Of a stretch of 64,000 nucleotides of DNA, positions 19,558 to 62,892 are shown piece by piece; within the stretch, counting starts at the first letter, position 1; every line of letters starts with the position of its first letter. The position numbers and the translations under genes are program-made. The DNA lies in NCBI GenBank assembly GCA_964353335.1, contig CAYGVI010000003.1, positions 263,085 through 327,084 on the forward strand. Reading direction: 5' to 3'. This stretch comes from an uncultured Methanosarcinales archaeon (lineage in GTDB: Archaea > Nanobdellota > Nanobdellia > Woesearchaeales > ARS49). The notes beneath the pieces are model-generated. The model searched no databases. It saw only the letters and a list, made by a program, of their open reading frames with translations, and was not told the origin of the DNA.

Positions 19558-21107
19558 ACCGTTGCCTGCGGTTGTGATTCCCGCACTGTTGCGCTTGTTG
19601 TGCGCTCAAGCCTGTAGCGGTATTGCACGCTTGCCTTGAAGTTCTGCACTCCAAGAGGCGCCTTGCCAAGCACTTTTTCAGAGTTTTCAATATCAATCGG
19701 GATGCGGAATGTCTTCATTGTGAGGTTTTTGTAAATTGCCTTTGAAAGCTCTTCTGTTGTTAGCGCGTAAACCTTTACAAGGGTGTCATCGCATGTTGCG
19801 CGCTCTTCTTCAGCCATGGCATCGCAGCTTGACTCAGTTATGCCAACACCTTCAATATTGGCAATCTTCAGCCCTGCAGGAATTATTATGAACACATTTG
19901 TTAGGTCAAGCACTTTTCCTTCCCACGCATTCTCAATTGTGAGCCCAAGGCTTGACAGCGGGTCTCCTGATGCTCCAATTGCAACAGGCTGCTGGCCGAT
20001 TGACATTCCAATGCGCACAGGCCCTGATGTGTAAATTGCAATGGGGCTCTTATCAGGGATGTTTGCAAGAGGGTCAACATTCTGCCGCCTGTACTCCTTC
20101 AGCCTTTCCATGTCAATCATGTATGCCTTGAGGTATGCTCTTGTTGTGAATTCAAATTCAGACCTTAGCCTCAAGGTGTGGCTGCCTTTTGGAAGTACTC
20201 CCTTGTTCCATACACAGTCAATGTCATACTGGTCTGAAGTCAGGACTGAGAATGACTCTTTTGGGCGCACCATGCTTGCAGTGGTGTTTGAGTCTGCGTC
20301 GCACAGGATGTTTATGTTGAGCTCTTTGTCAATTGTTTCTGCTTTCATCGTGGCATATGCCATTACCGGAGTGTTGTCGTAAAATATTGGCTCAGAAGTC
20401 CTGAAGTTTTCAAGATAAACCCCAAGCCTTTTCTTTGCTGCAGTGTCAACCTGGCCTGTGTAATAATCCCCTGTTGCCATTCTGTAAGAGCGGGTTGCTT
20501 CCTCTGCAAACATTGATGTTGTTTTTTGACCGTAGGTTATCAGGTTTGTCCAGCCTTCCTGCGCTTTTTCCCAGGAATAGCTTAACACCATGCTCGGGCT
20601 CAGGCTGTTTGGCATTGGATAGCCGCTTTCCTGTGCGTATTGCTGGATGTTTGGGAAAAGCATGAACATGACTATGAAAAACCAGAGGATTGTGTAGCTG
20701 AGTGAGAACCAGGTTGGCGCTGCCTGGGTTGCGAATACGACTGCGAGCAGCCAGAATGGCGCGATTATCATCATTATTGCCGCGAGGTATTTTATTGCAG
20801 GGAAATAATTCGGGGCTATTGACCAAAGAGGGCCCCAGACATAGGCAATGAGCGCGATGATTACAAGGCTTTTTGTGCCGACATCCTTGAATGCCTCTAG
20901 CTTGTTTGCGATTAAAAAGACAACGCCATAAAAGAAAGCGAACCCGAGCCACAGCCCAGGGCTTCCAGAGTTTCCTCCAATCGGGAAAGGCAGTGTGCCA
21001 TAGCGTACGAAACAGTCAAAAAAATGCAAAAGAATAACCAATCCCAGGAAACCTGTCAGTGACTTTCCTCCTGACAAAGGAGTTCCTGCGGGGGCAGGCA
21101 TTTTCAC
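19554..21107 (-). CDS. Large polytopic membrane protein (hypothetical) with extracytoplasmic C-terminal domain
   Basis: 517 aa; ~6-8 TM helices in the N-terminal half, soluble C-terminal domain; translationally coupled with flanking genes. Confidence 0.55.
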   Translation of the reverse strand: MKMPAPAGTPLSGGKSLTGFLGLVILLHFFDCFVRYGTLPFPIGGNSGSPGLWLGFAFFYGVVFLIANKLEAFKDVGTKSLVIIALIAYVWGPLWSIAPNYFPAIKYLAAIMMIIAPFWLLAVVFATQAAPTWFSLSYTILWFFIVMFMLFPNIQQYAQESGYPMPNSLSPSMVLSYSWEKAQEGWTNLITYGQKTTSMFAEEATRSYRMATGDYYTGQVDTAAKKRLGVYLENFRTSEPIFYDNTPVMAYATMKAETIDKELNINILCDADSNTTASMVRPKESFSVLTSDQYDIDCVWNKGVLPKGSHTLRLRSEFEFTTRAYLKAYMIDMERLKEYRRQNVDPLANIPDKSPIAIYTSGPVRIGMSIGQQPVAIGASGDPLSSLGLTIENAWEGKVLDLTNVFIIIPAGLKIANIEGVGITESSCDAMAEEERATCDDTLVKVYALTTEELSKAIYKNLTMKTFRIPIDIENSEKVLGKAPLGVQNFKASVQYRYRLERTTSATVRESQPQATV

Positions 21108-22303
21108 TCCACCCGCACATCAACGCTGATTATGTTGAGGTCAGCCATTGGTTCTATTCCGATGAAGTTGTTTCCGTCCCTGACCACTTCTGAGATGTCG
21201 CGCCCGAACTTGGGCGCTTTCTGCGAGAGCACATCAAGCCTTCCATTCACATTGGTCTGGGCTTCCTTCAGCTGCCCGTCATCCACAAACTCAATCTCAA
21301 GTATTGCGTGCGCCTTTCCTGTTACGATTGCGTTGAAGACTTCTGGCTTGATAAAGAAGAAATCAGAATATCCCTTTGTGGGCTTGACAAATGTCTTTAT
21401 CTTTATCTGCTCTATGCGCGCATTGCCTGAAGCGAGCCTGAAGCCGAGAGTGTTCTTTCCTGCTGCAAAGTCCTCCTTGAAGAGGTCCTCGCGCCCTGGG
21501 TTTTCGCATACAGGGACTGCAGAGTAAATCACTTTTCCATTAAGTGTTATGTCAAGCACTCCGACAGTGTTCTGGTCGCAAATAGGGTAGAATCCAAGGT
21601 ATGCTGTCTCAATGTTCTGGTGCTCTGCTTCAGGGATGCTGAACGCGTTTGCCGCCTGCTGTTTCTTGAGGTCGGTTATTTCGCCGATTATCTTCACGTC
21701 CTCCATATTGTACTGGCGCTTGAATATGAGCCCAAAGCCCCACACCTGGAATTCAACAGAGTTTTCTGTCTTCAGCAATCCCCTTGGTATTGGTATTGGG
21801 TTTGGATTCTGCACATTGATTGTATTCTCAAATACAGGAACACCATTGAATATTATTTTCAGCCTTCCACGCCTTATTGGCGTCTGGAATATGAGGAAGA
21901 CATTGTCAACGCTTTCAAGGTCAGATATGTAGAAGCTGACATTCCTGAACTGCCTGCTGAACCATCCTTTCTTAATGATAAATGGCGGAGCGTCTGCCAT
22001 TACTTTTGCCTGGCGTTCCTCTGAAAGCAAAATGTTTGGGATGACGTGCTGGAATTCTGTCTGGCCGACAAATGCCAGCCTGCCTGGCGCTCCCTTGAAG
22101 ATTGTTTCGCCGCCTTCAGGAATTACCCCGGGCACGACTCCTTCCTGGTCTTCCTGCAGTAATTCCTTGCGCTCTGCCGGAGGGAGGAAAAGGATATAGA
22201 ATATTATCAGGAGGGTGATAATGCCAACCAGTGTCGATGCTGCTGAACCGCTTGCCTGTCCGCGTTTTCTCACTTTATTCACCTTCTTTTTGTAAACAAG
22301 CAA
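21104..22303 (-). CDS. N-terminally membrane-anchored extracellular protein (hypothetical)
   Basis: 399 aa; basic N-terminus then TM 'LVGIITLLIIFYILFL'; first gene of the 5-gene minus-strand operon. Confidence 0.5.
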   Translation of the reverse strand: MLVYKKKVNKVRKRGQASGSAASTLVGIITLLIIFYILFLPPAERKELLQEDQEGVVPGVIPEGGETIFKGAPGRLAFVGQTEFQHVIPNILLSEERQAKVMADAPPFIIKKGWFSRQFRNVSFYISDLESVDNVFLIFQTPIRRGRLKIIFNGVPVFENTINVQNPNPIPIPRGLLKTENSVEFQVWGFGLIFKRQYNMEDVKIIGEITDLKKQQAANAFSIPEAEHQNIETAYLGFYPICDQNTVGVLDITLNGKVIYSAVPVCENPGREDLFKEDFAAGKNTLGFRLASGNARIEQIKIKTFVKPTKGYSDFFFIKPEVFNAIVTGKAHAILEIEFVDDGQLKEAQTNVNGRLDVLSQKAPKFGRDISEVVRDGNNFIGIEPMADLNIISVDVRVE

Positions 22304-36727: not shown

Positions 36728-38043
36728 AAATGAAAGCGCAGCTTACGCTGATGATGCTAATGGGGCTTGTAATGCTTATCGCGGTTGGAATTGTTTTGTA
36801 CATCGGCGGGTCTTCAATGACAAAAAGCACAGAGCGGGGAAGTGAGCAGCAGCGTTTGAGCCAGTCTGCAATCCAGACAATCAGGGATTATGTCCACTCG
36901 TGCCTTGACGCAACCACAACAGCTGCATTGGACCTTATCGGAAAGCAGGGCGGAGTGCTTTACAGGGCGCAGGGCGGCTTGACTCCTGACATCCTGCCTT
37001 CAGACCCGCAGGGCGGGCGCTATGTTATTTATGATGGGCTTAATGTCAGCTACCTCATCCACAGGCCCAGCCAGAATGTTGGCAGGCTTTATTTTGCAGA
37101 GCCTCCGGATTATCCATGGGTTACATTCCCGTATGTCCTTAACAAGTCAGACATGTCAGTCATGAGGACAACATACACCGGCTACTTTGGCATATCGCTT
37201 TTGCCCCCGCTTTTCAAGCCAGGCAAGGACTCCATCCAGGAACAGATTGAGTCATACATCAGCTTCAACCTTCCGCGCTGCACAGACTGGAGCTCATTCA
37301 AGGGGCTTTCAATCACTGCTGACAAGCCAAATGTCTCTGTAATAATCGCAGAGAACAAGACGCAGATTGAAACAGAGCAGTATTTCTCAGTGGTCGCGAA
37401 CTGGCAGGTGAACATCACTGACAGTTCCACAGGTTCCAACACCACACTTGACATGTTCTCGCGCGGTTATCCTGTCCACCTCGCAAAATTCTATGTTTTC
37501 GTGCAGAGCCTGATTTACAGCGAGATAAATGATTCATCATTTGACCCGCTCTCGCAAAGCTCGCCTGCAAGCCCTGTTTTTGTTTTCAGGGACATTTTCA
37601 AAAATCCAGAGGATGAAGGCGCTGATGACCTGATTATTGTAAAGGATGCAGAGTCAGAATTGCGCGGCAAGCCATTGGAGTTCAGGATACTGAGGCAGAA
37701 CCGCTATCCTGCGCTTGTCTGGATAAACCAGTCTGACATCAACAGCTATGCGTTTTACAGGATGGGCATGTGCCCAGCGAAAGCGCAGTCAATATTCCTC
37801 GAAGGCAACCAGCTCAAAATAACTTATGCAACAGACTCTCCGTATGAATGGTCTGGCACGCTTTCAGCAATTGACCCTGATGAGGACAATGTCAGCTTCA
37901 GCATCAAGCCTGAGGACGGGATAATAGATGACGTCCCGCTAAATGACGCCCTGTTCAGGCTGTTTGTTTATGCCTCTGACGGCGGAAACACAAAGGATTA
38001 CCAGATTGTCAACCTGACACTTGCGGGTTGCCCTGAAGAATGA
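36724..38043 (+). CDS. Class III signal peptide (type-IV-pilin-like) protein, 440 aa
   Basis: Start 'MKMKAQLTLMMLMGLVMLIAVGIVLYIGG' (basic residues, A, then Q+1 and a hydrophobic helix) overlaps the upstream stop (ATGA); large extracellular domain. Confidence 0.5.
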   Translation: MKMKAQLTLMMLMGLVMLIAVGIVLYIGGSSMTKSTERGSEQQRLSQSAIQTIRDYVHSCLDATTTAALDLIGKQGGVLYRAQGGLTPDILPSDPQGGRYVIYDGLNVSYLIHRPSQNVGRLYFAEPPDYPWVTFPYVLNKSDMSVMRTTYTGYFGISLLPPLFKPGKDSIQEQIESYISFNLPRCTDWSSFKGLSITADKPNVSVIIAENKTQIETEQYFSVVANWQVNITDSSTGSNTTLDMFSRGYPVHLAKFYVFVQSLIYSEINDSSFDPLSQSSPASPVFVFRDIFKNPEDEGADDLIIVKDAESELRGKPLEFRILRQNRYPALVWINQSDINSYAFYRMGMCPAKAQSIFLEGNQLKITYATDSPYEWSGTLSAIDPDEDNVSFSIKPEDGIIDDVPLNDALFRLFVYASDGGNTKDYQIVNLTLAGCPEE

Positions 38044-41000
38044 GAAAACTTTTGCTTATCGCGGTGGTTGCGGCATTTTTCTACATGGCACTCTTTTCCC
38101 AACAGGCATCCGGCCAGGAGCAGGGATGCTGCTGCGAGCCGATTTATCACCGCGGAATCATTGAGGAGCGCTCTGCGTGCGAGGAAAAAGGATATAACTT
38201 CACGTCAGAGCTTCCTGCCGAGGTCGGAGAAAGCTGCGACCCCATCTGCAATTCAACATTCGGCATTCCAATCATCATAACCCCGCCTGCTGACTGCGAG
38301 TCCCCGTTTTTCAACCCTGCTCCAATGAGCGTGGTTGCAAAGGCAGTCAAGGGAAAGAAGCAGATCAGGCTAATCTACACTGTTCCGTGCCCGATGCAGG
38401 CAATTGCTGTTAACATCTCGCGCTGTGCAGGTGATGATTGCGAGGACTTTTCCCAGATTGCCCAGATGTCGCCCACAGGGGTTTACACTGACGCGTCACC
38501 TGACCTTCTCTGGAACACCCCTTACACTTACATGGTGGTCATTACCTCGCGGATTTCAGGCGCTTCAGAGCCTGGCTTCGCAATAGGCAATGCAGGTGAC
38601 ATTGAATGCTGGAATCAGGGATTTGACAAGTTTTGCATTTCAGATTACTACTACACCCGCTTCCAGGAATATTTGTCAATGTATGGCTACAAGGATACCA
38701 GTGCAGATGCATTTGCAGGCGATTTACAGTCTTCTGTTGAGCTGACATTTGCTGACAAGTTTAATACCGGGAGATACTGCAATGATATCAACCTGCTCAG
38801 CGACACTGGCTTAAGCTGCCCTGAAGGAAAGAAGTGTGTCTCAGGAAAGCTCGGGCTTGCTTGCATCACTCCAACGTCCTGCGAAGGCGGCGGATTGTTC
38901 GGGCTTTACTCATCACTTGAAACCTGCGAGGGAACCGCGTCCGCGAAGAAGTACTGCTTCTTTGACCGCTCGCACAGTTCTGTTGACCGGTGCTACTCCT
39001 GCAGTCCGCAGATGAGCTGCGCTGACTACAGGTCAGAGGGCACGTGCAACCGCGACAACTGCTTTGCAGGCAACTGCTCATGGAAGCCTGTTTTCCCTGA
39101 CATCGGAATCGGTGTTTGTGTTGACAGCAGGTTCCCAAACTGCGCGTGGTGCACAAAGCAGGGCACAGAAGGGCTTGAAAACACTGATGCCTACAATGAA
39201 GTGTTTGACCAGTGCACTACAAGGAAATCAATAGCGCTCACTGTTCCAAATTATCTTTGCACATTTGACAAGAATGCCCAGGAAAGCAATGGCTGTGACG
39301 CCACTGCCTGCATGGATTACAATGACACTGACTGCGGCTCGCCTGCAGGAGGCATTCAGCTCAATCCTGACAACTCGCTTGAGGTTGGAAGCACTGACCC
39401 GTGCAGCATAAAGGTCTGCCAGCTTCAGTCCGGCATAGGCTGCCTGAAGAATGCTGACGGAAACGGTCTCTTTGACTGCGGCATAAAATCTGATGACCGA
39501 AGGCAGTGCGAGCTTGACCATTATCCGCCGAACACAACTTTTGTCGCTACCTCTTACAAGCCAAACCGCATGGACTGGCTCGAGGCAAGGATGCTTGACC
39601 AGGTGAACGGCACTGCAGACGCAGATTACATGCAGGGCAAACAGGGCTACAGGCTGAGGGTTTGCGTTGACAGCGAAGAAACACCCTGCGCTGAAGCCAC
39701 AACATTTGCCGAGACAAACCTTTCCTTGCTGAACTTCAATGACCTTTACCTGCAGGCAGGCAGGGATGTGGTTGCCACGATGTCCGACGGCGAGAACACG
39801 CTGAAATATTATGGAGTTGACCGCAGCAACAACCCTGAAGTTATCAAGGAAATGACAATACTTGCCTGCGACAAATGCCAGGGGCCCAAAGTGCTTGGCA
39901 TCAATGTCACCCCAAGCCGGAGCTACGAAGGAAAGTTTTACACAATATCCGAAATTCCAGTAATAACTGTCGCGTTCAATGAGCTTTCAACCCTGACAAC
40001 TGCCACGCTTTCAATCGGCAACAAGGTGATGCCTGTAAACGTCATGCCTCTTGGAGGGGCGAATTATGATTACACTTTTATCCCGATAAACACGCTGGAG
40101 GATGGCGAATACCTGCTGGCGTTCAATGCAAAGGACAGCAATGGGCTGCTTATGGACTTGCCTGGCTTGGCAATTATTGTTGTTGACACCACCCCTGGGG
40201 ATGTCACAATACTTCCTCCTGACGGAACTGTCATCAATGACACGTCAGTTGCAATCTCTTTCACCTTCAATCAGCCTCCTGTCAGCCTGCTTGGTGCTTA
40301 CCTTGACAATGAAGTCTGGATTAGCAAGTATGCCACGAAGAAAAAAATAATGAACCTGACATCAAGCCTTGTGGAAACAGAGCCCAATAAGGTCTATGAC
40401 ACCACTGTCGATGAGCTTTACGGCGGAAAGAAGAACATCAGGGTTTATGCAGAGGACTTCGCAGGCAATCCTGTAATAGGAAAGTCAAGCTTCTGGATTA
40501 ACAGCGGCCCATTGCAGATGAGGATGCGCGAGCCGAGCTGGGGTGTAAGCGCAACATATGTGTTTGACATCGCGATTGATACATCAATAGCCGCCACGTG
40601 CAAGTATGCGTATGACCTGCCTGCGCCTGTTCCTGTTGCGGCGTTTAATGACTTCCTTGCCCCATTCCCAGAGGAAAAAGAGGTTGTCCACAAGATTCCC
40701 GGATTTAACAAGATTTCTTTCGGTGATATGAAAGCGCACAAGCTTAGTGTTTATTGCAAGGCAGGGGCTAACATCACGATGGAGACATTTGAGCTACGCG
40801 TTGACCCAAGCCCGCCAACAATCAAGTCTGCTTACGCAGACCCTGCGGTAATAATTGAGCGCAGGACTCCAAGCGTGGACATATTCACAACATACCTGAA
40901 GGCTCAGACAGATGATGACGGCTTCTGCAGGTACAGCACCGAGAGCAAGCCGTTCATACTTATGGACGGGCTGTTCTCAGGCTTTGACGAATACCCCAAG

Positions 41001-43118
41001 AAATCCCACAGCGCTGAAATAAACGTAACTAAGGACATGACGTCATACACTTACTATGTTGCCTGCAAGAACACAGCAGAGCTGCCTTCTGCAACAGTGC
41101 CTGTCAAATTCAGCGTTGACACAACCATACCATTCGCGATAACAAGCCTCACCCCGCCATACTCCAACTCAACAGAATTCAGCATCGCCCTGCAGACAAA
41201 CAAGCGCGCATTATGCTACATTGCAGAAGACCCTGAAGTCACGCCCACTTTCATGGGATTGATGGGCCATTCGCACGTCTACCCTGTTGAAGTCAATAAG
41301 TCAGGCAATTATTCCTGGTATGTGAAGTGCAGCACAGGCGCAGGAAGCGAGGTTGCTGATATGTGGATCAATGTGCTTGTTGACACAACCCCGCCTGTAA
41401 TGCTGTATGTGAATGACAGTTCCAACCTGGCTGAGACTCCTGATGTCTCTTACTTCCTTGACCAGTTGATGGTAAAATTCCTTGGAGTTGACAATGAGAC
41501 CGCTGTTAATGCGTATTATTACCGCCTGCAGACTTTCTTCGCGAACGCCACAATCCTCAACTGGACTCTCAGCACAAACACAAACGGCACAGCATTTTAC
41601 GTGACAGGGTTGAACCTCACCGACGGCAACAAGTACAGGTTCGAGGCCTATCCTGTGAACATTATCGGGCTGCAGGGCGAGGCAAAGCAGAGCGATGGTG
41701 TGACGATTGATTCAACCAAGAAGCCTGCTGACTGCGTTAATGACATTCAGGATGGAAATGAAACAGACCTTGACTGCGGTGGCTTATGCCCTGGCTGCAA
41801 TGATGGCGGCAAGTGCAATGCTGATACAGACTGCCTGTCAGGATTCTGCGACAATGGACTCTGCGCACTGGTCGGCTGCGATGATGTTGCAAAGAATGGC
41901 AATGAAACAGATGTTGACTGCGGCGGAGGAGTGTGCCTGCCGTGCGGAATGAACAAGAGCTGCGTGCAGGATGCTGACTGCGCGAGCGGCAGCTGCAATT
42001 ATGGCACGTGCGGCGACCCGATACCATGCTCAGACGGCTTGCTCACAGGAACAGAATCAGACATTGACTGCGGAGGCTCATGCCCGAACAAGTGCGGCGA
42101 GGGAAAGAACTGCCAGGTGCCTTCTGACTGCGCAGGCGCACTGCTTTGCATTGACGAAACCTGCCAGGGATTGCTCGACAGCGACAATGACGGCGTTGAG
42201 GACGCAAAAGACAAGTGCCCGAACACGCCTGTCGGTGAAGCAGTTGATGAAAACGGCTGCTCTGCCTCGCAAAGGTTCACCTGTGGCGATGAGATATCTG
42301 ACGGCTGGAGGATAAAGTACTTTGGCAGCGTGCTTTGCGACGGAGACGGCGCCCCTGGTGCAGACCCTGACAAGGACGGCCTTACAAATGTTGAGGAATA
42401 CAGGGCGCGCACTGACCCGGCAAACGCAGACACTGATGGCGATGGATGGAATGACAAGGTTGAGCTTGACAAGGGCTATGACCCTCTTGACCCTGCTTCG
42501 CACCCGCCAAGCAAGGTGCGTATTTTGCTCTGGACTCTGCTCATACTTCTTTTGCTTGCAGTTCTGGGTGTCGGCGGATGGCTCGGCTACCAGTATTACA
42601 TGGAGAAGAGGCTTGAAGCCCTTCCGCCTTCAATACCTGCAAAGGCAGAAGCCCCTGAGCGCAAGTACAGGAAGTGGCCTTCAATAATTGAAAAGCTGCG
42701 CAGGATAGCGCGCAAGGAAGAGCCTGGTGTCATTGACCGCGACTGGGTATCGCTCGCAGAGCTTTCAGAGCGCCTGAAGGAAGGGAAAGTGCACGTGCAC
42801 AAGGATGTCTTTGAACGCCTTGAGGGCCTGATAAGCGGAAAGATTCCAAAGGAGGAGACAGAAAGCATCCTTGAGGCAATCCAGAAGGAGCCAAAGGCAT
42901 TCAAGCTTTTGCGCAGGATTTCATTTGAGAAGCTCTCTCCTGCTGAAAAGGAGTTTGTGCGCAAGCGCCTTGCATTCCTAAAGTCAGGAAAGCTCACATC
43001 AGCAGAGCTTGAGCAGGTGCTCACAAAGCTGCGCATAACCGCAGCATATTATAGGACTCACAGGGAAGAGCTTGAGCGCGAGCTTGAGGAATGGCTTGAT
43101 GAGCGGAGGCACAAATGA
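38040..43118 (+). CDS. Giant (1,692 aa) Cys-rich surface protein with thrombospondin-type-3-like Ca-binding repeats, C-terminal TM anchor and cytoplasmic coiled-coil tail
   Basis: Signal 'MRKLLLIAVVAAFFYMALFS'. Three ~40-aa tandem repeats '(N)ETDxDCGGxCxxCxxGxxCxxxxDCxSGxCxxGxC' (nt ~41730-42170). TSP3-like 'DSDNDGVEDAKDKCPNTP' and 'DPDKDGLTNVEEY...DTDGDGWNDKVELD' motifs. TM 'ILLWTLLILLLLAVLGVGGWLGY', then a Lys/Glu-rich tail. Confidence 0.7.
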   Translation: MRKLLLIAVVAAFFYMALFSQQASGQEQGCCCEPIYHRGIIEERSACEEKGYNFTSELPAEVGESCDPICNSTFGIPIIITPPADCESPFFNPAPMSVVAKAVKGKKQIRLIYTVPCPMQAIAVNISRCAGDDCEDFSQIAQMSPTGVYTDASPDLLWNTPYTYMVVITSRISGASEPGFAIGNAGDIECWNQGFDKFCISDYYYTRFQEYLSMYGYKDTSADAFAGDLQSSVELTFADKFNTGRYCNDINLLSDTGLSCPEGKKCVSGKLGLACITPTSCEGGGLFGLYSSLETCEGTASAKKYCFFDRSHSSVDRCYSCSPQMSCADYRSEGTCNRDNCFAGNCSWKPVFPDIGIGVCVDSRFPNCAWCTKQGTEGLENTDAYNEVFDQCTTRKSIALTVPNYLCTFDKNAQESNGCDATACMDYNDTDCGSPAGGIQLNPDNSLEVGSTDPCSIKVCQLQSGIGCLKNADGNGLFDCGIKSDDRRQCELDHYPPNTTFVATSYKPNRMDWLEARMLDQVNGTADADYMQGKQGYRLRVCVDSEETPCAEATTFAETNLSLLNFNDLYLQAGRDVVATMSDGENTLKYYGVDRSNNPEVIKEMTILACDKCQGPKVLGINVTPSRSYEGKFYTISEIPVITVAFNELSTLTTATLSIGNKVMPVNVMPLGGANYDYTFIPINTLEDGEYLLAFNAKDSNGLLMDLPGLAIIVVDTTPGDVTILPPDGTVINDTSVAISFTFNQPPVSLLGAYLDNEVWISKYATKKKIMNLTSSLVETEPNKVYDTTVDELYGGKKNIRVYAEDFAGNPVIGKSSFWINSGPLQMRMREPSWGVSATYVFDIAIDTSIAATCKYAYDLPAPVPVAAFNDFLAPFPEEKEVVHKIPGFNKISFGDMKAHKLSVYCKAGANITMETFELRVDPSPPTIKSAYADPAVIIERRTPSVDIFTTYLKAQTDDDGFCRYSTESKPFILMDGLFSGFDEYPKKSHSAEINVTKDMTSYTYYVACKNTAELPSATVPVKFSVDTTIPFAITSLTPPYSNSTEFSIALQTNKRALCYIAEDPEVTPTFMGLMGHSHVYPVEVNKSGNYSWYVKCSTGAGSEVADMWINVLVDTTPPVMLYVNDSSNLAETPDVSYFLDQLMVKFLGVDNETAVNAYYYRLQTFFANATILNWTLSTNTNGTAFYVTGLNLTDGNKYRFEAYPVNIIGLQGEAKQSDGVTIDSTKKPADCVNDIQDGNETDLDCGGLCPGCNDGGKCNADTDCLSGFCDNGLCALVGCDDVAKNGNETDVDCGGGVCLPCGMNKSCVQDADCASGSCNYGTCGDPIPCSDGLLTGTESDIDCGGSCPNKCGEGKNCQVPSDCAGALLCIDETCQGLLDSDNDGVEDAKDKCPNTPVGEAVDENGCSASQRFTCGDEISDGWRIKYFGSVLCDGDGAPGADPDKDGLTNVEEYRARTDPANADTDGDGWNDKVELDKGYDPLDPASHPPSKVRILLWTLLILLLLAVLGVGGWLGYQYYMEKRLEALPPSIPAKAEAPERKYRKWPSIIEKLRRIARKEEPGVIDRDWVSLAELSERLKEGKVHVHKDVFERLEGLISGKIPKEETESILEAIQKEPKAFKLLRRISFEKLSPAEKEFVRKRLAFLKSGKLTSAELEQVLTKLRITAAYYRTHREELERELEEWLDERRHK

Positions 43119-45723: not shown

Positions 45724-47622
45724 ATGGGGCTGTGGGACAGGATAAAGCGGCTTATTCCAATAGCGCTTTTGGCAGGAGGAGCCACATACATGATAGCCAA
45801 CCGCCCGCAGGCAGTTCCCCCGAGTCCTGCATATTCTGTTAATGAGCAGGCAGAGAGGTCAAGAAGGGGTGATGAGAGATTTTGGAAATTTGTTTTGTGT
45901 GGCACAGCGCTTTCCGTTGGTGCGCTTGGCGCCGCGCATGTTGCCCAAAGAATGAAAGGGAAAACGCCATCATTTTTACAGCCTGCTGTTGAAAAACCAG
46001 GCTTGACAGGCATTGCCGCAGGGGCATCATACGGTCTTGCTTACTATTCCCAGCTGCCAAAGCAGGAGGATGCGCCTTATGCGCTCGGCATTGCAGCAAT
46101 GTCAGGCATTCTCGGATACCTTGTGCCATCGCTTCTCAAGCAGTACCGCCCGCCGTATGTGATAAATTATGCGAAATGCCTGCCTGGAATAATACATTCC
46201 GTTTTTACCCGTGACCCTGTAAAAAAGCAAAAGATTCTGGAGGGATTGAGAAATAGTTTGGCAGTTCCTGAAAGGGCAGACATCGAACTTGTTGATGTAT
46301 TGTTTGCGCAGGGCAAAGTTGATGAGGCATGCAACCTTCTCAAGGACACAGCAAGGACTGCTGCAAAGGCACTTCCATCAACAGATTTTGAGCGTTATTT
46401 TACCCTGCCGCTTTCATCTGAAATAGTCAGGGGGAGGGCTGGCTCAAAGAGCCCGTTTAGCCTGATGTGCGAATACCTGCGCCAGGGCGACCTTGAAGAG
46501 GCGCTTTCAGCAGCAGACAACTTCGCGGCTCAGGAAAAAACACCAAGCAGGCTGGCTGCGCGGGCTTATGCAGTCCAGTCAGTGGCTGAAATGCTTCCTT
46601 CGCTGAAAGGGATTTTTCCGCATTTGTTGCTCAGGGAGACTGAGCTTGACGAACGCACCAGCCGCGCATGGAATGATGCCATCGGTGCAATCCTGTCAGA
46701 CCCGTCGCGCGAGCAGAAATTCCGCGTGATGGGCGAATCGCGCAATGAGGTGCTTGAGTATGCCGCAAGCGAATTCCTGAAGGGTCTGCTCGTGTTTAAG
46801 CGCTGTGACGTAAGGCTTGGCTCAAGGCTGGTGCAGGAGCGCGTGAATGTTATTTCCCTGAAAAACTCATTGGGGGACAGGATTGTGCAGTCAATCGCGT
46901 ATGTTGAGCGCGATGGCAAGGCGTATCATGTGCTGAAGCACGGCACTTCCCGCACTCTTGAGGATGTTATGCGCGCAGGCTCTCCTGAGGAAAAGCTAAA
47001 GTGCATGGACCAAGCTGCCCGTTTGCTCGCGAAAATACACCAGAGCAGGATTCCTGAGCCACAGGTTGCTGCCTGCGAGTCTTATTATCAAAACAGGCTT
47101 TCATCCTGCTTTTATGACCAGCTTGCGAACAGCCCGCTGTGCAAAGAAATTCCTTCATCAATAAAGGATGAGTTTCAATTTTTGGGCGAAAGGGTCAAGG
47201 ACGAGCTTTCTGACGCGCCGACAGGCTGGTACAAGGACGCAAACCCGAGGAATTGGCTTGTTGAGGACAATGGAAAGGTTGTGGCGATTGATTTTGAGCA
47301 CCGCATAAGGCTTCCTGTTCTTTTTGACCTTGTCAGCCTGCTTGAGTTCAGCCCTGTGCCTGCGCCAACTGAGATTAAGAGCAGGGTAATTGAGTATTAT
47401 CTTGGTGAATTCTACTCCACCAGCAAGCTGCCCATGGCAAAATTCATGCGGCACTACAGGATTTCCGCTCTCCAGCGTCACATTGAGCTTGCAGGCTACA
47501 GGGCAAGGGACAAGGATGCAAAGGCAGCAGCATTCCACATTGACCGCGCACAGTCATATGCCTATGAGCTTGGCGAGGATGTTTTTGCAGAAAAGCTTAG
47601 CAAGATAATCATAAGTGCATAA
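45724..47622 (+). CDS. Membrane-anchored protein-kinase-like (APH/choline-kinase fold) protein
   Basis: 632 aa; 4 predicted TM helices in the first ~140 aa; C-terminal domain with 'WYKDANPRNWLVEDNGKVVAIDFE', which resembles the APH/ChoK catalytic 'H.D..p.N.l...liDwE' brace. Confidence 0.45.
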   Translation: MGLWDRIKRLIPIALLAGGATYMIANRPQAVPPSPAYSVNEQAERSRRGDERFWKFVLCGTALSVGALGAAHVAQRMKGKTPSFLQPAVEKPGLTGIAAGASYGLAYYSQLPKQEDAPYALGIAAMSGILGYLVPSLLKQYRPPYVINYAKCLPGIIHSVFTRDPVKKQKILEGLRNSLAVPERADIELVDVLFAQGKVDEACNLLKDTARTAAKALPSTDFERYFTLPLSSEIVRGRAGSKSPFSLMCEYLRQGDLEEALSAADNFAAQEKTPSRLAARAYAVQSVAEMLPSLKGIFPHLLLRETELDERTSRAWNDAIGAILSDPSREQKFRVMGESRNEVLEYAASEFLKGLLVFKRCDVRLGSRLVQERVNVISLKNSLGDRIVQSIAYVERDGKAYHVLKHGTSRTLEDVMRAGSPEEKLKCMDQAARLLAKIHQSRIPEPQVAACESYYQNRLSSCFYDQLANSPLCKEIPSSIKDEFQFLGERVKDELSDAPTGWYKDANPRNWLVEDNGKVVAIDFEHRIRLPVLFDLVSLLEFSPVPAPTEIKSRVIEYYLGEFYSTSKLPMAKFMRHYRISALQRHIELAGYRARDKDAKAAAFHIDRAQSYAYELGEDVFAEKLSKIIISA

Positions 47623-48508
47623 TCATCAGGGCGCCATTAAGGTCAAATGTTTTCTCAACTATGTCTTCCAGCCAGAATAAGAGCCTTTGCTCAGCTGGTT
47701 TTGCCTTGTTATGCGCTTTATCCAGATCGGAAAGTATTTCTTTTCTCATCGCCACGAATTTTTTAAGTTCTGGCAGGCTGAACTTGTAGAAGCATTCGTA
47801 AAACCTGTTGAGATAGTCTGCGGTTTGCGCGTAAAGCCCGATGAACTGCCTGCTTGGCGCGAGCTTTTGCCCTGCAGCTGCCGCGCTAATGTCCCTGTAC
47901 CTGTCGCTTATTTTCTCCAGCTGCTCAACAATAAGGTAAAGCACAGGCGAATTTGAGGATTGCTGCTTGTTTATCAGCCTCCTGCAGAAGTCAGCGAGCT
48001 TGTTGACATCCTTGTCCCTCAGAACAAGGCGCTTCAGCCAGCCAAAATCCCGATTCTGCAGCGCAGTTGATATTTCTGATGCATAATCTTTTATCACAAG
48101 GAACTGGCGCCTGAGGACTGCATCAAACTGCTCAGGGTTTGGCAGGGATATTTCACGCACAACAATGTGGTTTTTTCCATGCTGGACAACCTCAAAGCCT
48201 GTGAATTCCTCGCGGACAACTTCATAAGCGGTTTCAAGCTCGTCGTGTTTGCCAAAATGGACTGTGAATTCATCATATCCTTTCTTGTAAAGTGCGCCAA
48301 GTGCGCGCTTTATCGCGGGATTGAGCCCTGTTATGTCTATTGCCGCCTTGTTTCCTGCAGGCATGCTTGTGCTTTGCAGGACAAGCTTTCCCTCCTTTTC
48401 CTCAACAGAAATCTCATCACCCTTTCTTATGCCGTGCTGCTGCACCCACTTGCTTGGAAGGCTGACAAGAAGCGAGTTCTCCCCCAGCTTTATGACCTTG
48501 CGCCGCAT
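47609..48508 (-). CDS. AbrB/SpoVT-type DNA-binding domain protein with PhoU-like C-terminal domain
   Basis: 299 aa; N-terminal 'MRRKVIKLGENSLLVSLPSKWVQQHGIRKGDEISVEEKEGKLVLQ' swapped-hairpin AbrB/MazE fold; helical C-terminus as in archaeal PhoU-type regulators. Confidence 0.5.
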   Translation of the reverse strand: MRRKVIKLGENSLLVSLPSKWVQQHGIRKGDEISVEEKEGKLVLQSTSMPAGNKAAIDITGLNPAIKRALGALYKKGYDEFTVHFGKHDELETAYEVVREEFTGFEVVQHGKNHIVVREISLPNPEQFDAVLRRQFLVIKDYASEISTALQNRDFGWLKRLVLRDKDVNKLADFCRRLINKQQSSNSPVLYLIVEQLEKISDRYRDISAAAAGQKLAPSRQFIGLYAQTADYLNRFYECFYKFSLPELKKFVAMRKEILSDLDKAHNKAKPAEQRLLFWLEDIVEKTFDLNGALMIMHL

Positions 48509-48635: not shown

Positions 48636-49112
48636 ATGGTTTCGAAAAAAGAACTGTTGATTGTGGCGAATTTGCGGAAGAATGCGCGGGTGAAGCTCAC
48701 AGAGCTGTCGCGCAGGACAGGCCTGCCGGTGAGCACGCTGTTTGACCGCGTCCATAATCTCTGCGATTTGGGCATAACAAGGCTCAGCGCGCTGCTTGAC
48801 TTTCCCGCGATGGGCTTTGGGACCTGCGCCACGATTCTTTTGAAGGTCGCAAAGGAAAAGCGCGATGAGCTCAGGGAGCACCTGATTGTTGCCCATTCCG
48901 TGAACTCCCTGATGCGCGTCAATAATGGCTATGACTTCATGGCAGAGTGTGTTTTCAGGGACATGCGCGAGCTTGAGGAGTTCTGCGAAAATCTCGAGCA
49001 GGCTTACGGCGTCAGGGGAAAGGAGCTGCATTTTGTGATTGAGGAGCTGAAGCGCGAGGGATTTCTTTCAGAGCCTTCGCTTGTCAGGCAGGTGGTAAAG
49101 GATGGGAAGTGA
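48636..49112 (+). CDS. Lrp/AsnC-family transcriptional regulator
   Basis: Start at the internal ATG 48636, in frame with ORF 48321..49112; 'KKELLIVANLRKNARVKLTELSRRTGLPVSTLFDRVHNL' HTH, then a RAM domain. Confidence 0.75.
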   Translation: MVSKKELLIVANLRKNARVKLTELSRRTGLPVSTLFDRVHNLCDLGITRLSALLDFPAMGFGTCATILLKVAKEKRDELREHLIVAHSVNSLMRVNNGYDFMAECVFRDMRELEEFCENLEQAYGVRGKELHFVIEELKREGFLSEPSLVRQVVKDGK

Positions 49113-49413
49113 GCGGCTTGGTCCTGCAGGGTTTGCGCTTGCCCTCACTATTGCAACTCTTGGCTCTGGGCTGATGATGTACCGCGGCTACTGCCACCTT
49201 GTCGCAACAGGTGTTTTTCCTCCTGTTGTGCGCAGGGAGGAGAAGCGCACCTTGTCTTACGAATCAAAAGAGGTTGAGCAGCTTGTGGAGAGCACGCTGT
49301 ACAGGCGGGCTGTTCCTCTTGACGCAAGGGAAAGGGAGCTCTACAGGATGGACAAGGACAGGGACTGCAAAATCACAGAGAAGGAAGTCATGTTTTATGT
49401 CAGGAACAAATAG
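49102..49413 (+). CDS. Small membrane protein with C-terminal EF-hand-like loop (variant)
   Basis: 103 aa; TM 'FALALTIATLGSGLMMY'; 'DKDRDCKITEKE' fits the EF-hand loop except Gly6 is Cys. Confidence 0.4.
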   Translation: MGSERLGPAGFALALTIATLGSGLMMYRGYCHLVATGVFPPVVRREEKRTLSYESKEVEQLVESTLYRRAVPLDARERELYRMDKDRDCKITEKEVMFYVRNK

Positions 49414-49416
49414 GAG

Positions 49417-49773
49417 GTGTTTGAAATGGATGAAACAATTGATTCAAAGGTGGAGGGTGCAAAAACTCCTTCAAAGATTGGAAGGTTTTTTGGCAATGCG
49501 GTTATGTACTTGGTTGTAATCGGCGCTGCAGGAGGAATTGGCGCAATCGGCAAGCAGGTGTATTATGACATCAAGGGAATCAGGCCTGTTGTGATGACTA
49601 ATGATGAGTATAATCAGTTTTCAGAGATTATGTCTGACTTGAGCAAAGCAAGGCATGAATACCTCTGCGAGCAGGCAAGGTATATCCGCGAAACTGTTAT
49701 GCCCACTATTGACAAGAATGGCGATGGCCATATCACCCGCGAGGAAGTGGGTTTGCCTCCAAAACAGCACTAA
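49417..49773 (+). CDS. Small membrane protein with canonical EF-hand Ca-binding loop
   Basis: 118 aa; TM 'AVMYLVVIGAAGGIGAIG'; 'DKNGDGHITREE' is a 12-residue EF-hand loop (D1,N3,D5,G6,I8,E12). Confidence 0.45.
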   Translation: MFEMDETIDSKVEGAKTPSKIGRFFGNAVMYLVVIGAAGGIGAIGKQVYYDIKGIRPVVMTNDEYNQFSEIMSDLSKARHEYLCEQARYIRETVMPTIDKNGDGHITREEVGLPPKQH

Positions 49774-49779
49774 CCAAGG

Positions 49780-49800
49780 AGTAAAGCTTATATACCTAAA
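49780..49800 (+). promoter_or_regulatory. Candidate BRE/TATA promoter for the small pilin gene
   Basis: 'gtaaagCTTATATAcc' ~35-45 nt upstream of the ATG at 49837; SD-like 'agaggtg' 7 nt upstream of the start. Confidence 0.35.
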
Positions 49801-49836: not shown

Positions 49837-50142
49837 ATGGATAAGAAAGCTCAGGGGCTACCAATAACAACAATTATCATAGCTATCCTTGGACTGGTTG
49901 TTCTGGTCATTTTGTTCGCAATCACTACAGGCAGGCTTGCCATATTTGGAAGGGCTACTGCAGAATGCCAGGGCATTTGTGTCGGTGAATACACTGGCGC
50001 AACCCCTGACCAAAATGCCCGCGAATGCACAGCTGGTTTTGAGAAAGAAGTTGGCGGCAATTATGTTAAGCCAGGACAGCCGCAGAGTATCAAGGCAGAG
50101 GAAATACTCAAGTGCTCGCGCTGCTGCCTGCCAATTGCCTGA
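49837..50142 (+). CDS. Small pilin (class III signal peptide), paralog 1; candidate major pilin
   Basis: 101 aa; 'MDKKAQGLPITTIIIAILGLVVLVILFAI'; mature part has 6 Cys including a C-terminal 'CSRCC'. Confidence 0.55.
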   Translation: MDKKAQGLPITTIIIAILGLVVLVILFAITTGRLAIFGRATAECQGICVGEYTGATPDQNARECTAGFEKEVGGNYVKPGQPQSIKAEEILKCSRCCLPIA

Positions 50143-50272
50143 TGGCGCTTATCACAGAAGCAACGCCCGGAAAAATTGTTGTTTTGATTTTCCTCGCGCT
50201 GCTGCTAATATACCTTGTCACCACATTGTTTGTGCTTGACAAGCAGCTTGTAATACCAATAATACCCGTACC

Positions 50273-50551
50273 ATGAAGAAAGCACAAGGTCTTCCAATAA
50301 CAACAATCATTATTGCAGTTCTTGGGCTGGTTGTTCTGATTGTTATTATGGGAATATTCGGGGTCCGCAGCCAGAAGTTCGGCAAGGGCGTAAGCGAGGT
50401 AGCTGAGCCCGTCTGCCAGGCGCAGTATGTTACTTCCATGACTGACTGCGATGCACGTGGCGGCGAAGCCCAGGTTGGCAGCTTTGTTAAGGAAGACAAG
50501 AGCCGCCTTGGCTTTACAGAAGTCTGTTGCTCTAAGGCACAATCACCCTAA
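50273..50551 (+). CDS. Small pilin (class III signal peptide), paralog 2
   Basis: 92 aa; 'MKKAQGLPITTIIIAVLGLVVLIVIMGIFG', near-identical N-terminus to paralog 1; C-terminal 'VCCSK'. Confidence 0.55.
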   Translation: MKKAQGLPITTIIIAVLGLVVLIVIMGIFGVRSQKFGKGVSEVAEPVCQAQYVTSMTDCDARGGEAQVGSFVKEDKSRLGFTEVCCSKAQSP

Positions 50552-50715
50552 ACCCCTTCTTTTTTCACCGAAAGCCTTATATAAATAGTATTCTCGGAAT
50601 TGCTTATGAAAAAAGAGGCTGTGACATACACCCTACTTTTGTGGCTCGCAATGCTTCTTATACTGTTCTTAATCATAATTTCTGTCATGAGGCGCATGAC
50701 CGCAGGCGGTGCACC

Positions 50716-51642
50716 TTGAGGCGCGGCGCAATCGGTGTTAACACCCTTGTCAGTCTGGCAGTGCTGCTTATCGTGGTTTTTGTGATGCTGGGGTTGATTC
50801 CTGGGTTTACGCAAAAGCTTCAGGCAGCTGAAAGCGCGAGCACGTGCTCGTGGTCTATCCTTCTTGCTTCTGTGCAAAAGCTCGGCTCAGCAGGAATTGC
50901 ACAGGGAATTCCAGAGGGCTGCAAGGCAATAATGGTCAATGTCTCAATGAAAGACCTTGAGAAAAACCAGAGGCTCGCAAGCAACCGCATATCAGAGTTC
51001 ATGAACAAGCCTGACATTTACAAATCACAGTATTTCACAAACACAAACAAGGAAACACTTAACGAATTCGCGCTCGACAAGATACTTGCAGATGAGCTCG
51101 TTGACTGCTGGGAAAAAGTCTTCAAGGGAAAAATGCCCTTGTTTGATGAATGGTGGCGGCTTTACTCATGGAAAGAAGGCAACCCTGGCAGTGGTCCGGT
51201 TGCTCTGCAAGTCTGGAATGTGCAAGTGCATGGTCCGCCTGTCAACTGCGTTATTTGCTCGCGAATAACATTTTCAGATGAAGTTATTTCACAATTTAAG
51301 CAAAAGCAAATAATCTCACTTGAAGAATGGATGTCCCTGAATCCAGTTCCTCGGACAAATACTCCGTATCTTCAGTATATTTATGAAGGCCAGACCGGCA
51401 CAGACCTGTTCAAGCCAAAATACAGGCCAAAATACAGCTTTGTTGCTGATGAGCGTGGATTAGCGGTTCTTTATCAGCGCGTGAATGTCCATGGACTCGA
51501 AAGCGCTGTCACAACACCCTTGAAATGGATTGGAGCAATTCCTGAAAAAACTCCAGACCTGAACTATCTGAAGCTTGTTCCTTACTCGCAGGAAGCCATA
51601 ATTTCACAGGATGGCGAGGGCTGCACGCTTATAATTGACTAA
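50716..51642 (+). CDS. Pilin/archaellin-like protein with class III signal peptide (probable TTG start)
   Basis: ORF track gives an ATG at 50641, but that adds 25 residues with no function. A TTG at 50716 preceded by 'ggcggtg' yields 'MRRGAIGVNTLVSLAVLLIVVFVMLGL', a textbook archaeal class III signal; ~308 aa. Confidence 0.45.
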   Translation: MRRGAIGVNTLVSLAVLLIVVFVMLGLIPGFTQKLQAAESASTCSWSILLASVQKLGSAGIAQGIPEGCKAIMVNVSMKDLEKNQRLASNRISEFMNKPDIYKSQYFTNTNKETLNEFALDKILADELVDCWEKVFKGKMPLFDEWWRLYSWKEGNPGSGPVALQVWNVQVHGPPVNCVICSRITFSDEVISQFKQKQIISLEEWMSLNPVPRTNTPYLQYIYEGQTGTDLFKPKYRPKYSFVADERGLAVLYQRVNVHGLESAVTTPLKWIGAIPEKTPDLNYLKLVPYSQEAIISQDGEGCTLIID

Positions 51643-51809
51643 AATGATAAAAACACTTTATTCGTTGTGGAAAAACAGGAAGGCAATGGATATTCCCGGA
51701 TGGGCTTATGTCATCGCTTTGATTATCGGTCTGTTTGTGATACTGTTTGCAATCTGGATTGCTGCAAAGTCAGGTTCCAAGCAGTCCGGCTTCCTGGAGC
51801 AAATATAAG

Positions 51810-59070: not shown

Positions 59071-60102
59071 GTGGTTAAACTGATAAGGATACCATTTGAT
59101 GAAATGCTCGGCAAGATTGAGCAGAAGACAGGTCTTTCTCCAGCGCAGATTCAGGAAAAGATTGATGCAAAGCTCAACCAGCTCAAAGGATTAATCAGCA
59201 AGGAGGGCGCTGCGCACATCATCGCGAATGAGCTCGGTGTAAAGCTTCTTGAAAACTCAGGCAAGATAAAGGACATTTACGCAGGAATGCACAGTGTTGA
59301 GTTCTCAGGAAAAGTCCAGACAATTTACCCGCTTAACACTTTTGCACGCCAGGACGGCACAGAAGGAAAAGTCTCAAGCTGCATGGTCGCGGATGAGACA
59401 GGAGTCATGCGCGTTGTCGGCTGGGGCGAGCAGGCAGAGCTTGTCAGCAAGCTTGAGCAGGGAAACGTGGTAAAAGTCTCTGGCGGTTTTGCAAAGGACA
59501 ACAACCGCGGATATTCAGAAGTGCACCTTAATGACAAGTCGCACATCATTGTCAATCCTCCGGGAGTAACCCTTGGAGAAGTAAAGACAATCCAGCCAAG
59601 GGCAGCTGCAGTCCGCAAGGAAATCAAGGCTTTGCAGGAAAATGATGAAAACATTGAGCTTCTCGGAACAGTTGTCCAGATTTTTGAGCCAAGATTCTTT
59701 GAAATCTGCCCGACATGCAATGGCAGGGCAAGGGCGCAGGAAGACGGCCAGTTTGTCTGCGAAAAACACAGCGTTGTAAAGCCAGAATATGCTTTTGTGA
59801 TGAATGTTGTCCTTGATGACGGAACAGAAAGCATACGCTGCGTCCTTTTCAGGCAGCAGGCAGAAAGGCTTCTTGGAAAGACAATTGAGCAGATTCTTCC
59901 GATAAGGCAGGCTCCTGAGCAGTTTGAGCCAATAAAGACAGAAATGCTCGGACAGATTGTCAAGCTTGTCGGCAAAGCAAAGAAGAACACTTTCTTTGAC
60001 CGCCTTGAATTCAATGTCCAGATGGTCTTCCCAAACCCAGACGCCAAAGAAGAAATTGCCAGAATGCAGGCAACTGCGCCTGCGCAGTCTCCTTCTCAAT
60101 AG
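59071..60102 (+). CDS. rpa: Replication protein A / archaeal SSB (OB folds plus zinc ribbon)
   Basis: 343 aa; OB-fold regions 'VEFSGKVQTIYPLNTFARQDGTEGKVSSCMVADETGVMRVVGW' and a zinc ribbon 'CPTCNGRARAQEDGQFVCEKH'. Confidence 0.75.
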   Translation: MVKLIRIPFDEMLGKIEQKTGLSPAQIQEKIDAKLNQLKGLISKEGAAHIIANELGVKLLENSGKIKDIYAGMHSVEFSGKVQTIYPLNTFARQDGTEGKVSSCMVADETGVMRVVGWGEQAELVSKLEQGNVVKVSGGFAKDNNRGYSEVHLNDKSHIIVNPPGVTLGEVKTIQPRAAAVRKEIKALQENDENIELLGTVVQIFEPRFFEICPTCNGRARAQEDGQFVCEKHSVVKPEYAFVMNVVLDDGTESIRCVLFRQQAERLLGKTIEQILPIRQAPEQFEPIKTEMLGQIVKLVGKAKKNTFFDRLEFNVQMVFPNPDAKEEIARMQATAPAQSPSQ

Positions 60103-61890: not shown

Positions 61891-62892
61891 ATGACACAAG
61901 TGGTTGAAATCGAAATGGATGAGAACGGGCCAAAGGTTACTTCAAAAAAAGTCCAGTCAGTCGCAGACCTGCCTGGAATAGGTCCTGCAACAATTGAGAA
62001 GCTTGAGGCAGCAGGATTTAGTGACCTTATGAGCATTGCTGTCGCGACTCCTGGAGAACTGGTCGGCGCAACAGAGATGAGCGAGGCAACTGCAAAGAAA
62101 GTTATCGCGATAGCGCGAGCCAATCTTGAAATGGAATTCCTGTCAGGAGAGGAAGTCCTGAAAAAGCGCGAGCAGTGCATCAAGATTACAACAGGAAGCA
62201 AGGAGCTTGACAAGTTAATGGGCGGCGGATTTGAGACTGGCGGAATTTCAGAGGCATATGGCCAGTACGGGGCCGGGAAATCCCAGATTGCCCATGTCCT
62301 TGCAGTTCGCTGCCAATTGCCTGTTGAAAAAGGCGGCGCTGGAGGCGCCTGTGTATTTATTGACACAGAAAGCACTTTCCGCCCTGAAAGAATTGTGCAG
62401 TTTGCAAAAGGGCTTGACCTTGATCCAGAGGAAGTCCTGAAAAACATCAAGGTTGCAAGGGCTTTTAACAGTGACCACCAGGCTTTGCTCGCTGAAAAGG
62501 TTGAGGACCTTATCAAGAAGCACAATGTCCCTGTGAAACTATTGATTGTTGACTCGCTGACAGCCCACTTCCGCGCTGAATTCATCGGCAGGGGGACGCT
62601 CGCTGACAGGCAGCAGAAAATCAACAAACACATGCACGCACTGATGAAGCTCGCTGACAAGTACAACCTTTGCGTTTACGTCACCAATCAGGTCATGGCA
62701 AGGCCAGACACCTTTTTCGGAGACCCGACAGAAGCGATTGGCGGCCACATTGTCGCGCACAACTCAACTTACCGCATCTATCTCAGGCGCGGAAAGAAAG
62801 GAACCCGTGTCGCGAAGATGGTTGACGCGCCAAACCTTCCAGAGTCAGAGGCGACTTTCATGGTTGAAGAGACCGGCATCAAGGACGCGTAA
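61891..62892 (+). CDS. radA: DNA repair and recombination protein RadA
   Basis: 333 aa; N-terminal HhH '[17 protein letters not shown]', Walker A '[12 protein letters not shown]', Walker B '[12 protein letters not shown]'. Confidence 0.9.

Follow-up and report, generated by a model that had tools for sequence, protein, structure and literature searches.

The window analysed here is a 64,000-nucleotide (nt) stretch of contig CAYGVI010000003.1 (assembly GCA_964353335.1, positions 263,085 to 327,084 of the forward strand), deposited as an uncultured Methanosarcinales archaeon and placed by GTDB in the Woesearchaeales. Two small genes on its forward strand, A (49102-49413) and B (49426-49773), encode predicted membrane proteins that each carry one EF-hand-type loop, a putative Ca2+ site, near the C-terminus. 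Both open reading frames (ORFs) and both loops lie where an earlier reading of the sequence, hereafter the original prediction, had placed them. Gene A specifies 103 residues, arranged as a short N-terminal tail, one transmembrane (TM) helix, a helical tail and a C-terminal EF-hand. For gene B, the 118-residue product first proposed from GTG 49417 gives way to one of 115 residues starting at ATG 49426 (MDETIDS...). The ATG is almost certainly the true start, because the orthologues all begin M[DN]ETIDSKV and a Shine-Dalgarno (SD) sequence, GGAGGTG (49413-49419), lies 6 nt 5' of it. Protein B consists of a conserved N-terminal peptide, a glycine-rich TM segment, a long helix, the EF-hand loop and a GLPPK tail.

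In a canonical EF-hand loop of 12 residues, positions 1, 3 and 5 (D/N/S) supply oxygen ligands, E or D at position 12 is bidentate, position 6 permits the turn, and hydrophobic residues stand at position 8, where a beta-bridge to the partner loop forms, and at position 13. The loop of A, DKDRDCKITEKE (residues 84-95, 49351-49386), offers D1, D3, D5 and E12 as ligands and is part of a predicted EF-hand (49324-49407) with its entering helix at residues 75-86 and its exit helix at residues 93-102. The loop of B, DKNGDGHITREE (residues 96-107, 49711-49746), offers D1, N3, D5 and E12 and is followed by a conserved V/A-G-L-P-P-K that ends at 49764. That B holds a perfect EF-hand loop is borne out: it is the one strict match to pattern PS00018 in a six-frame translation of the window. 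If position 6 of the pattern is freed, four matches appear, of which two are A and B. Loop A carries Cys in place of Gly6, as had been noted, and does not match the strict pattern, since Cys falls outside the residues allowed there (Gly or D/N/Q/H/R/K). Because the motif is this rare and its two copies sit 360 base pairs apart at the C-termini of adjacent small TM proteins, the pair is not a chance occurrence.

Loop conservation among homologues, a check that the original prediction had proposed, could be followed in nine orthologues of A and eight of B, which are 29-57% identical overall and came from profile searches and from synteny on the encoding contigs. The ligand residues are kept throughout: loop positions 1, 3, 5 and 12 are invariant or show D/N swaps only, the hydrophobic position 8 is conserved, and in both families positions 2, 4, 7 and 11 are free to vary. 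In A, D1, I8, T9, E10, E12, V13 and Y16 are invariant and positions 3 and 5 hold only D or N; position 6 is G in five orthologues, C in two and D in two. Judged by the Gly in five of the nine, Gly would be ancestral and Cys6 of the window protein a derived state. In B, D1, N3, D5, G6, E12, G14 and P17 are invariant, with I, V or L at position 8 and V, A or S at position 13. Fixed ligand positions among varying non-ligand positions indicate selection on a Ca-coordinating EF loop, and the assignment of both as conserved EF-hand-type loops is well supported at the motif level.

Profile comparisons point the same way. Searched against the PDB, the B profile retrieved only EF-hand Ca-binding proteins, among them CaBP1 (6.9e-7) and calmodulins, and so did the A profile, with an Entamoeba CaBP at 2.6e-3. 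Pfam scans at E<=1 returned EF-hand families only, besides ClpS for B (E=0.22), and gave no match of either protein to Dockerin_1, EF-hand_STIM1 or PilN/PilO; NCBIfam had no match for A or B. EF-hand_1 matches six of eight A members (best E=4e-4; 12.5 bits for window A, cut-off 25.4), and EF-hand families match all seven B members scanned (window B: EF-hand_5 E=0.0016, 18.2 bits, cut-off 25.9; EF-hand_1 E=0.0037), every one of these scores lying under the gathering cut-off. In a hidden Markov model (HMM) search the B profile matched 449 proteins at E<1e-3, a few over their full length and the rest in the loop segment only, usually several times per protein. When ten of these matches were scanned with Pfam, nine proved to be genuine multi-EF-hand proteins (EF-hand_5/1/6/7, with E-values as low as 1e-80); the other was the chimera P0113 described below. 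The nearest relatives of the B loop, P0011 (DRNGDGFITRDEVGLAPQS) and P0088, have N-terminal signal peptides.

Hydropathy and AlphaFold2 (AF2) models agree with the original prediction that each protein has a single TM helix; the loops, which it has following this helix, do not come directly after it but about 55 residues beyond. The TM core of A (residues 9-27, 49126-49182) is supported by the Kyte-Doolittle maximum, the alignment and model helix 8-36, and a conserved juxtamembrane MMYxGY follows. In B the TM core (residues 23-41, 49492-49548) is glycine-rich (IGAAGGIGAIG), and a long helix (residues 59-95, 49600-49710) containing the conserved EYLCEQA(K/R)xxRE runs into the loop. The model of A (predicted local distance difference test, pLDDT, 61 overall) has helices at 8-36, 56-68, 75-86 and 93-102. 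Its last two helices form, at a local pLDDT of about 55-63, the expected helix-loop-helix, the exit helix beginning at loop position 10 (E93), which is the canonical EF-hand register. The model of B (pLDDT 58) has helices at 18-31, 39-50 and 59-95, followed by coil.

Several smaller features of the two chains may be recorded here. Window A has Cys at loop position 6 and in the juxtamembrane GYCHL, and the Cys of the B helix (EYLCEQA) is kept in five of eight orthologues. The secreted proteins encoded nearby are very Cys-rich, so that A and B, if their tails are extracellular, could conceivably form disulfides between molecules. Window B ends in PPKQH and a stop codon (49765-49773), whereas in six near-identical contigs (L003-L006, L018, L020) codon 114 is TAG, not CAG, and the protein ends in PPK; residues after PPK are not conserved.

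The N-terminus of B carries a conserved motif of its own (residues 1-11, 49426-49458), M-[DNE]-[EQ]-T-I-[DE]-[SK]-K-V-x-G, in which M1, T4, I5, K8, V9 and G11 are invariant among seven members at 29-57% identity. The flank N-terminal to the TM helix is more positively charged than the C-terminal one in five of seven members, equally charged in two and less charged in none. With the N-flank charge at or above that of the C-flank in all seven, B is predicted to be oriented N-in/C-out, which would place the motif in the cytoplasm and the Ca site outside.

Upstream of A lies a gene for an Lrp/AsnC-type transcription regulator (48636-49112, forward strand; Pfam AsnC_trans_reg E=3.8e-9, HTH_24 E=3.9e-6, and Lrp-type NCBIfam matches). 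Its stop codon (49110-49112) overlaps the ATG of A in the window and in every locus that shows both genes. At the A-B junction (49411-49425) the stop codon of A (TAG, 49411-49413) overlaps the SD sequence of B; the spacer is 12 nt, and A and B share a reading frame. Three loci (the window, L001:9986-10000 and L007:337-351), whose proteins are 40-57% identical, carry the junction TAGGAGGTGTTTG unchanged. The two genes are thus adjacent and coupled, as had been described, and Lrp/AsnC, A and B make up a predicted conserved three-gene operon with overlapping or coupled starts. Downstream of B, on the same strand, a BRE-like AGTAAA (transcription factor B recognition element; 49780-49785) and a TATA box, TTATATA (49788-49794), precede the SD of the first pilin-like gene by about 30 nt. 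The element AGTAAA-N2-TTATATA (49780-49794) is invariant in seven loci, with GAGGTG and then the pilin ATG downstream of it. By consensus we infer an archaeal BRE/TATA pair, consistent with a strong, independent promoter for a highly expressed major subunit. A and B do lie between the regulators and the pilin genes, as the original prediction had it, yet they belong to the regulator operon and not to the pilin transcript, since a separate, conserved BRE/TATA serves the pilin gene.

The A/B family is small. In a word-indexed search of 5.8 billion proteins B had two non-self relatives and the single sequence of A had none; a profile of the syntenic A orthologues then recovered two new A relatives. 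An exhaustive HMM search of 1.84 billion representatives gave five full-length B-family clusters and P0113, in which only the tail is B-like. A locus search with the B alignment added no more than two genome loci and two metagenome loci, so the family is really small, and it is confined to a few metagenome-assembled genomes (MAGs) of Woesearchaeota. In P0113 (287 residues) a homocysteine S-methyltransferase fragment is joined to a tail that resembles B and contains a duplicated helix segment; the loop, DKNKGGNITREE, is degenerate, with Gly at ligand position 5. The protein may be a copy in decay, or an artefact of assembly or gene calling.

The gene content of the 64-kilobase (kb) window is archaeal (RadA, 61891-62892; RPA, 59071-60102; RNase P p30, eRF1 and Cdc6), and related copies of the A/B locus occur in MAGs of Candidatus Nanoarchaeia / Woesearchaeota. 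A and B are embedded in a surface/adhesin/pilin-like island of about 26 kb (33443-59022), between RNase P p30 and RPA, with almost no Pfam matches and with many proteins that have signal peptides or class-III-like N-termini. Directly downstream are two pilin-like genes on the forward strand: protein 1 (49837-50142) has a class-III-signal-peptide-like N-terminus, MDKKAQGLPITTIIIA..., and protein 2 (50273-50551) begins MKKAQGLPITTIIIA.... Neither has an NCBIfam match and protein 1 also lacks a Pfam match, so that the label 'pilin' comes from the N-terminus only. Upstream, a 632-residue membrane protein (45724-47622) combines N-terminal TM segments with a C-terminal APH/kinase-like domain (Pfam APH E=1.8e-6), and an AbrB/PhoU regulator follows on the minus strand (47609-48508). 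In every related locus the APH-like kinase is encoded next to the AbrB/PhoU and Lrp regulators; it may be a partner in signalling.

Farther upstream in the island, a Cys-rich surface protein of 1692 residues (38040-43118) carries a C-terminal TM anchor and, beyond it, a cytoplasmic tail that is charged and helical. The TSP3-like Ca motifs that had been attributed to this giant protein were recovered by a regular-expression search of its translation: three DxDxDG motifs, at residues 1380, 1442 and 1464 (42177-42470, forward strand), sit just before the TM anchor. The protein itself matches no Pfam family at E<=0.01, and its orthologues give only faint TSP3_bac matches. Interleaved with the pilin-like genes are conserved mini-TM ORFs (50142-50276, 51686-51808 and a 37-residue ORF near 50606-50719), encoding products of 44 residues (MALITE...FVLDK), 37-40 residues (MKKE...) and 40 residues (MDIPGWAYVIA...). 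They are called in most related loci and have no family match. A second block, on the minus strand at 16646-22303, comprises five consecutive ORFs (307-517 residues), none with a Pfam match.

From these observations we tentatively favour a reading in which A and B form a membrane-anchored, Ca2+-responsive module that tunes the expression or assembly of the adjacent pilin/adhesin apparatus, their lone EF-hands pairing with another chain. Under this reading a Woesearchaeota (DPANN) archaeon would possess, in A and B, two lineage-specific bitopic membrane proteins with one functional EF-hand-type Ca2+ site apiece at the C-terminus, and the gene structure indicates that they are made stoichiometrically with the Lrp regulator. 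A lone EF-hand exposes a hydrophobic face, which is normally buried against another hand. Most likely, then, each tail pairs with another chain and could complete an EF-hand pair as A:B or as A:A and B:B, with Ca2+ binding driving or stabilizing the association. With its Ca site outside, B may use its conserved 11-residue N-terminal peptide as a cytoplasmic docking site, through which the external Ca state could be coupled to a cytoplasmic partner such as the Lrp regulator or the APH-like kinase. The target, judging from position, would be the expression or assembly of the adjacent pilin/adhesin genes.

A number of results weigh against this reading. At the level of the domain, no A or B member reaches a Pfam gathering score. 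A single hand of 25-30 residues rarely passes the Pfam EF-hand gathering cut-off, and the low scores lower formal EF-hand membership and do not count against the motif. Confidence in both AF2 models is low, a consequence of shallow alignments, and a Foldseek search of the PDB gave no match for the A model and only matches at E>2 for the B model. A helix-loop-helix had been expected in both; it appears, at low pLDDT, in A, and B has the entering helix and lacks a real exit helix, the model being coil after residue 95. The sequence breaks at G14-L-P-P, and the conserved ending REEVGLPPK agrees with a model without an exit helix. The missing helix does not disqualify the loop, because genuine multi-EF-hand proteins include hands with the same short ending. 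In window A, Cys6 could weaken Ca binding.

The remaining difficulties concern partnership and function. By the charge rule the topology of A is mixed, with delta(C-N) running from -2 to +3 across orthologues, so that its orientation is ambiguous and the membrane could separate the tail of A from that of B. BLASTP finds no similarity between A and B and hhalign aligns only 15 loop columns; an origin by tandem duplication therefore cannot be shown. All lineages but one encode A and B together across a coupled junction; the exception keeps A without B (GCA_040961595.1 and two independent Logan assemblies; L008:1201-1894, L009, L010). There the stop of A, TAGGAG, runs straight into the BRE/TATA of the pilin gene, which is the same invariant element, and B appears to have been cleanly deleted between two AGGAG repeats. 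The loss is derived, as A and the pilin of this lineage are closest to those of B-containing loci. Since A is retained without B, an obligate A:B pair is unlikely. A link between Lrp and A/B is suggested by operon membership only. Pfam scans of about 45 ORFs detected no pilus ATPase, platform protein (T2SSE/T2SSF-type) or prepilin peptidase in the window, and the 'pilus' context is itself therefore drawn from N-terminal motifs.

These points bear unequally on the forms that a Ca2+-responsive module might take. The heterodimeric A:B Ca sensor of the original prediction is plausible, weakened as it is by the B-less lineage and by the ambiguous topology of A. Its most elaborate form would be a split transmembrane switch, in which external Ca2+ folds the hands of A and B into a heterodimeric pair and so joins the TM helices and the invariant N-terminal peptide of B, thereby capturing or releasing the Lrp regulator or the kinase and switching on the pilin/adhesin genes for host attachment. 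To this we would give little credence at present.

Five other readings were weighed, in the order homodimers, structural extracellular sites, cytoplasmic tails, a chance motif and read-through. The first, doubtful but the strongest of the five, is that each protein pairs with itself, A:A and B:B, to make its own EF-hand pair, and that the two act independently or sequentially. Isolated EF-hand peptides form homodimers when they bind Ca, and in penta-EF-hand proteins EF5 pairs across the dimer; the lineage that has lost B retains A with an intact loop, DSNNDDEITEQE; and beyond the loop the two tails show no relationship. Set against homodimers is the invariant coupled A-B junction in every other locus, which is typical of stoichiometric partners.

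The sites might instead be structural and not sensory, which we regard as unlikely: extracellular tails, constitutively loaded with Ca, would stabilize accessory or scaffold subunits of the pilin/adhesin assembly, much as in dockerins, pseudopilins and PilY1, with A and B as analogues of the bitopic alignment proteins PilN/PilO. The predicted C-out orientation of B accords with this, and so do the TSP3-like structural Ca motifs of the neighbouring surface protein and the likeness of the N-terminal peptide and Gly-rich TM helix of B to parts of machine subunits. The relatives of the B loop are secreted, moreover, and the function of PilY1 is Ca-dependent (PMC8833165). Yet A and B belong to the regulator operon and not to the pilin transcript, neither matches PilN/PilO or any machinery family in Pfam at E<=1, the window holds no assembly ATPase or platform protein, and B is dispensable in one lineage.

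It is rather improbable that the tails are cytoplasmic and that the EF-hands bind Ca2+ or another cation inside the cell, tethering or modulating the Lrp/AsnC regulator at the membrane. Several A orthologues do combine a negative N-flank with a cluster of positive charge (RREEKR / KKEH) beyond the TM helix, with delta(C-N) up to +3, and translational coupling to Lrp is tight. The charge balance of B is opposite, though, that of A is mixed, and any contact between regulator and tail would be hypothetical.

Two readings are easily set aside. Incidental acidic stretches that bind no Ca are very improbable: PS00018 does give false positives and every Pfam score is under its gathering cut-off, but the motif is rare in the window, its ligand positions stay invariant while others vary in two unrelated proteins at 29-57% identity, and the profiles retrieve only EF-hand proteins. 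Read-through or recoding of the TAG, which would fuse A and B into one two-TM protein with two EF-hands and which the shared frame and the invariant 12-nt spacer in three divergent loci might suggest, is scarcely credible and was rejected, as the spacer is a perfect SD (GGAGGTG) 6 nt before a conserved ATG, the B start is conserved, B is cleanly deletable and the window shows no sign of TAG recoding.

If the loops bind Ca2+, two proteins of about 110 residues and one regulator would make a very compact and experimentally tractable model, which could show the use of a single EF-hand in a membrane protein as well as Ca2+ control of surface appendages in ultra-small symbiotic archaea, for whose biology attachment to a host is central. 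It would serve, too, as a natural test case for single EF-hands that pair under Ca2+ across two chains. Were the split switch to be true, it would constitute a minimal, previously undescribed one-step Ca signalling system of archaea; if the sites are only structural, the gain is a modest one of annotation for two ORFan families. EF-hand proteins are, to our knowledge, poorly documented in archaea. Full-text literature searches combining EF-hand with DPANN or with archaeal pili returned no description of such proteins, and a search on single-EF-hand dimerization in prokaryotes returned nothing directly usable.

Among known systems, some can be set apart at once. A and B are not PilN/PilO-type proteins, having no family match and no T2SSE/T2SSF-type proteins in the window beside them, nor are they type I dockerins, which have two tandem Ca loops within about 60-70 residues against one loop per protein here; Dockerin_1 arose only as a weak secondary match, on the multi-EF-hand proteins. 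Calmodulin, CaBP1 and Entamoeba CaBP1 resemble A in that its last 29 residues fit the helix-loop-helix consensus (hydrophobic at -4 and -1; D1, D3, D5, I8, T9, E12 and V13; Y16-V17-R18). They differ in being soluble, with at least two hands per chain, whereas A and B are membrane-anchored and single-handed and window A has Cys6. STIM1 is a single-pass protein with a canonical luminal EF-hand whose Ca occupancy controls oligomerization and signalling on the cytoplasmic side. The likeness to A and B is one of concept only, one canonical hand on the non-cytoplasmic side: STIM1 has a hidden second hand in the same chain and a SAM domain and is eukaryotic, and no homology is indicated.

A functional precedent exists in bacterial type IVa pili, where Ca2+ at an EF-hand-like site of PilY1 controls pilus priming and formation and TfcP, a small accessory protein encoded with minor pilins, modulates this Ca dependence (PMC8833165). 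The PilY1 site, however, is in a large beta-propeller tip adhesin, whereas A and B are small and bitopic, and neither a PilY1-like protein nor a pilus motor was identified in the window. Individual hands of secreted bacterial multi-EF-hand proteins (EF-hand_5/EF-hand_7 type; P0011 and P0088) are nearly identical to that of B (DKNGDGHITREEVGLPPK in B against DRNGDGFITRDEVGLAPQS) and likewise have a short or absent exit helix; these proteins carry 4-11 tandem hands behind a cleavable signal peptide, in contrast to the one hand, TM anchor, long helix and N-terminal peptide of B. EfhP (PA4107) of Pseudomonas aeruginosa, a demonstrated Ca sensor that binds Ca2+ and exerts Ca-dependent regulation, has a predicted N-terminal membrane anchor and two periplasm-facing EF-hands (PMC4053335, PMC9132961), whose loops lie at residues 88-99 and 115-126 of one chain (PMC4053335). 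Likened by motif and architecture only, and not by sequence comparison, EfhP shares with A and B a small size, an N-terminal TM helix and 12-residue EF-hand loops in a C-terminal tail, which in EfhP and B is predicted to be non-cytoplasmic. It is proteobacterial and has two hands per chain, whereas A and B, encoded by adjacent genes in the Lrp operon of a DPANN archaeon near pilin-like genes, carry a single hand apiece. The closest known analogue of A and B is EfhP, its architecture here being split over two chains with one hand on each.

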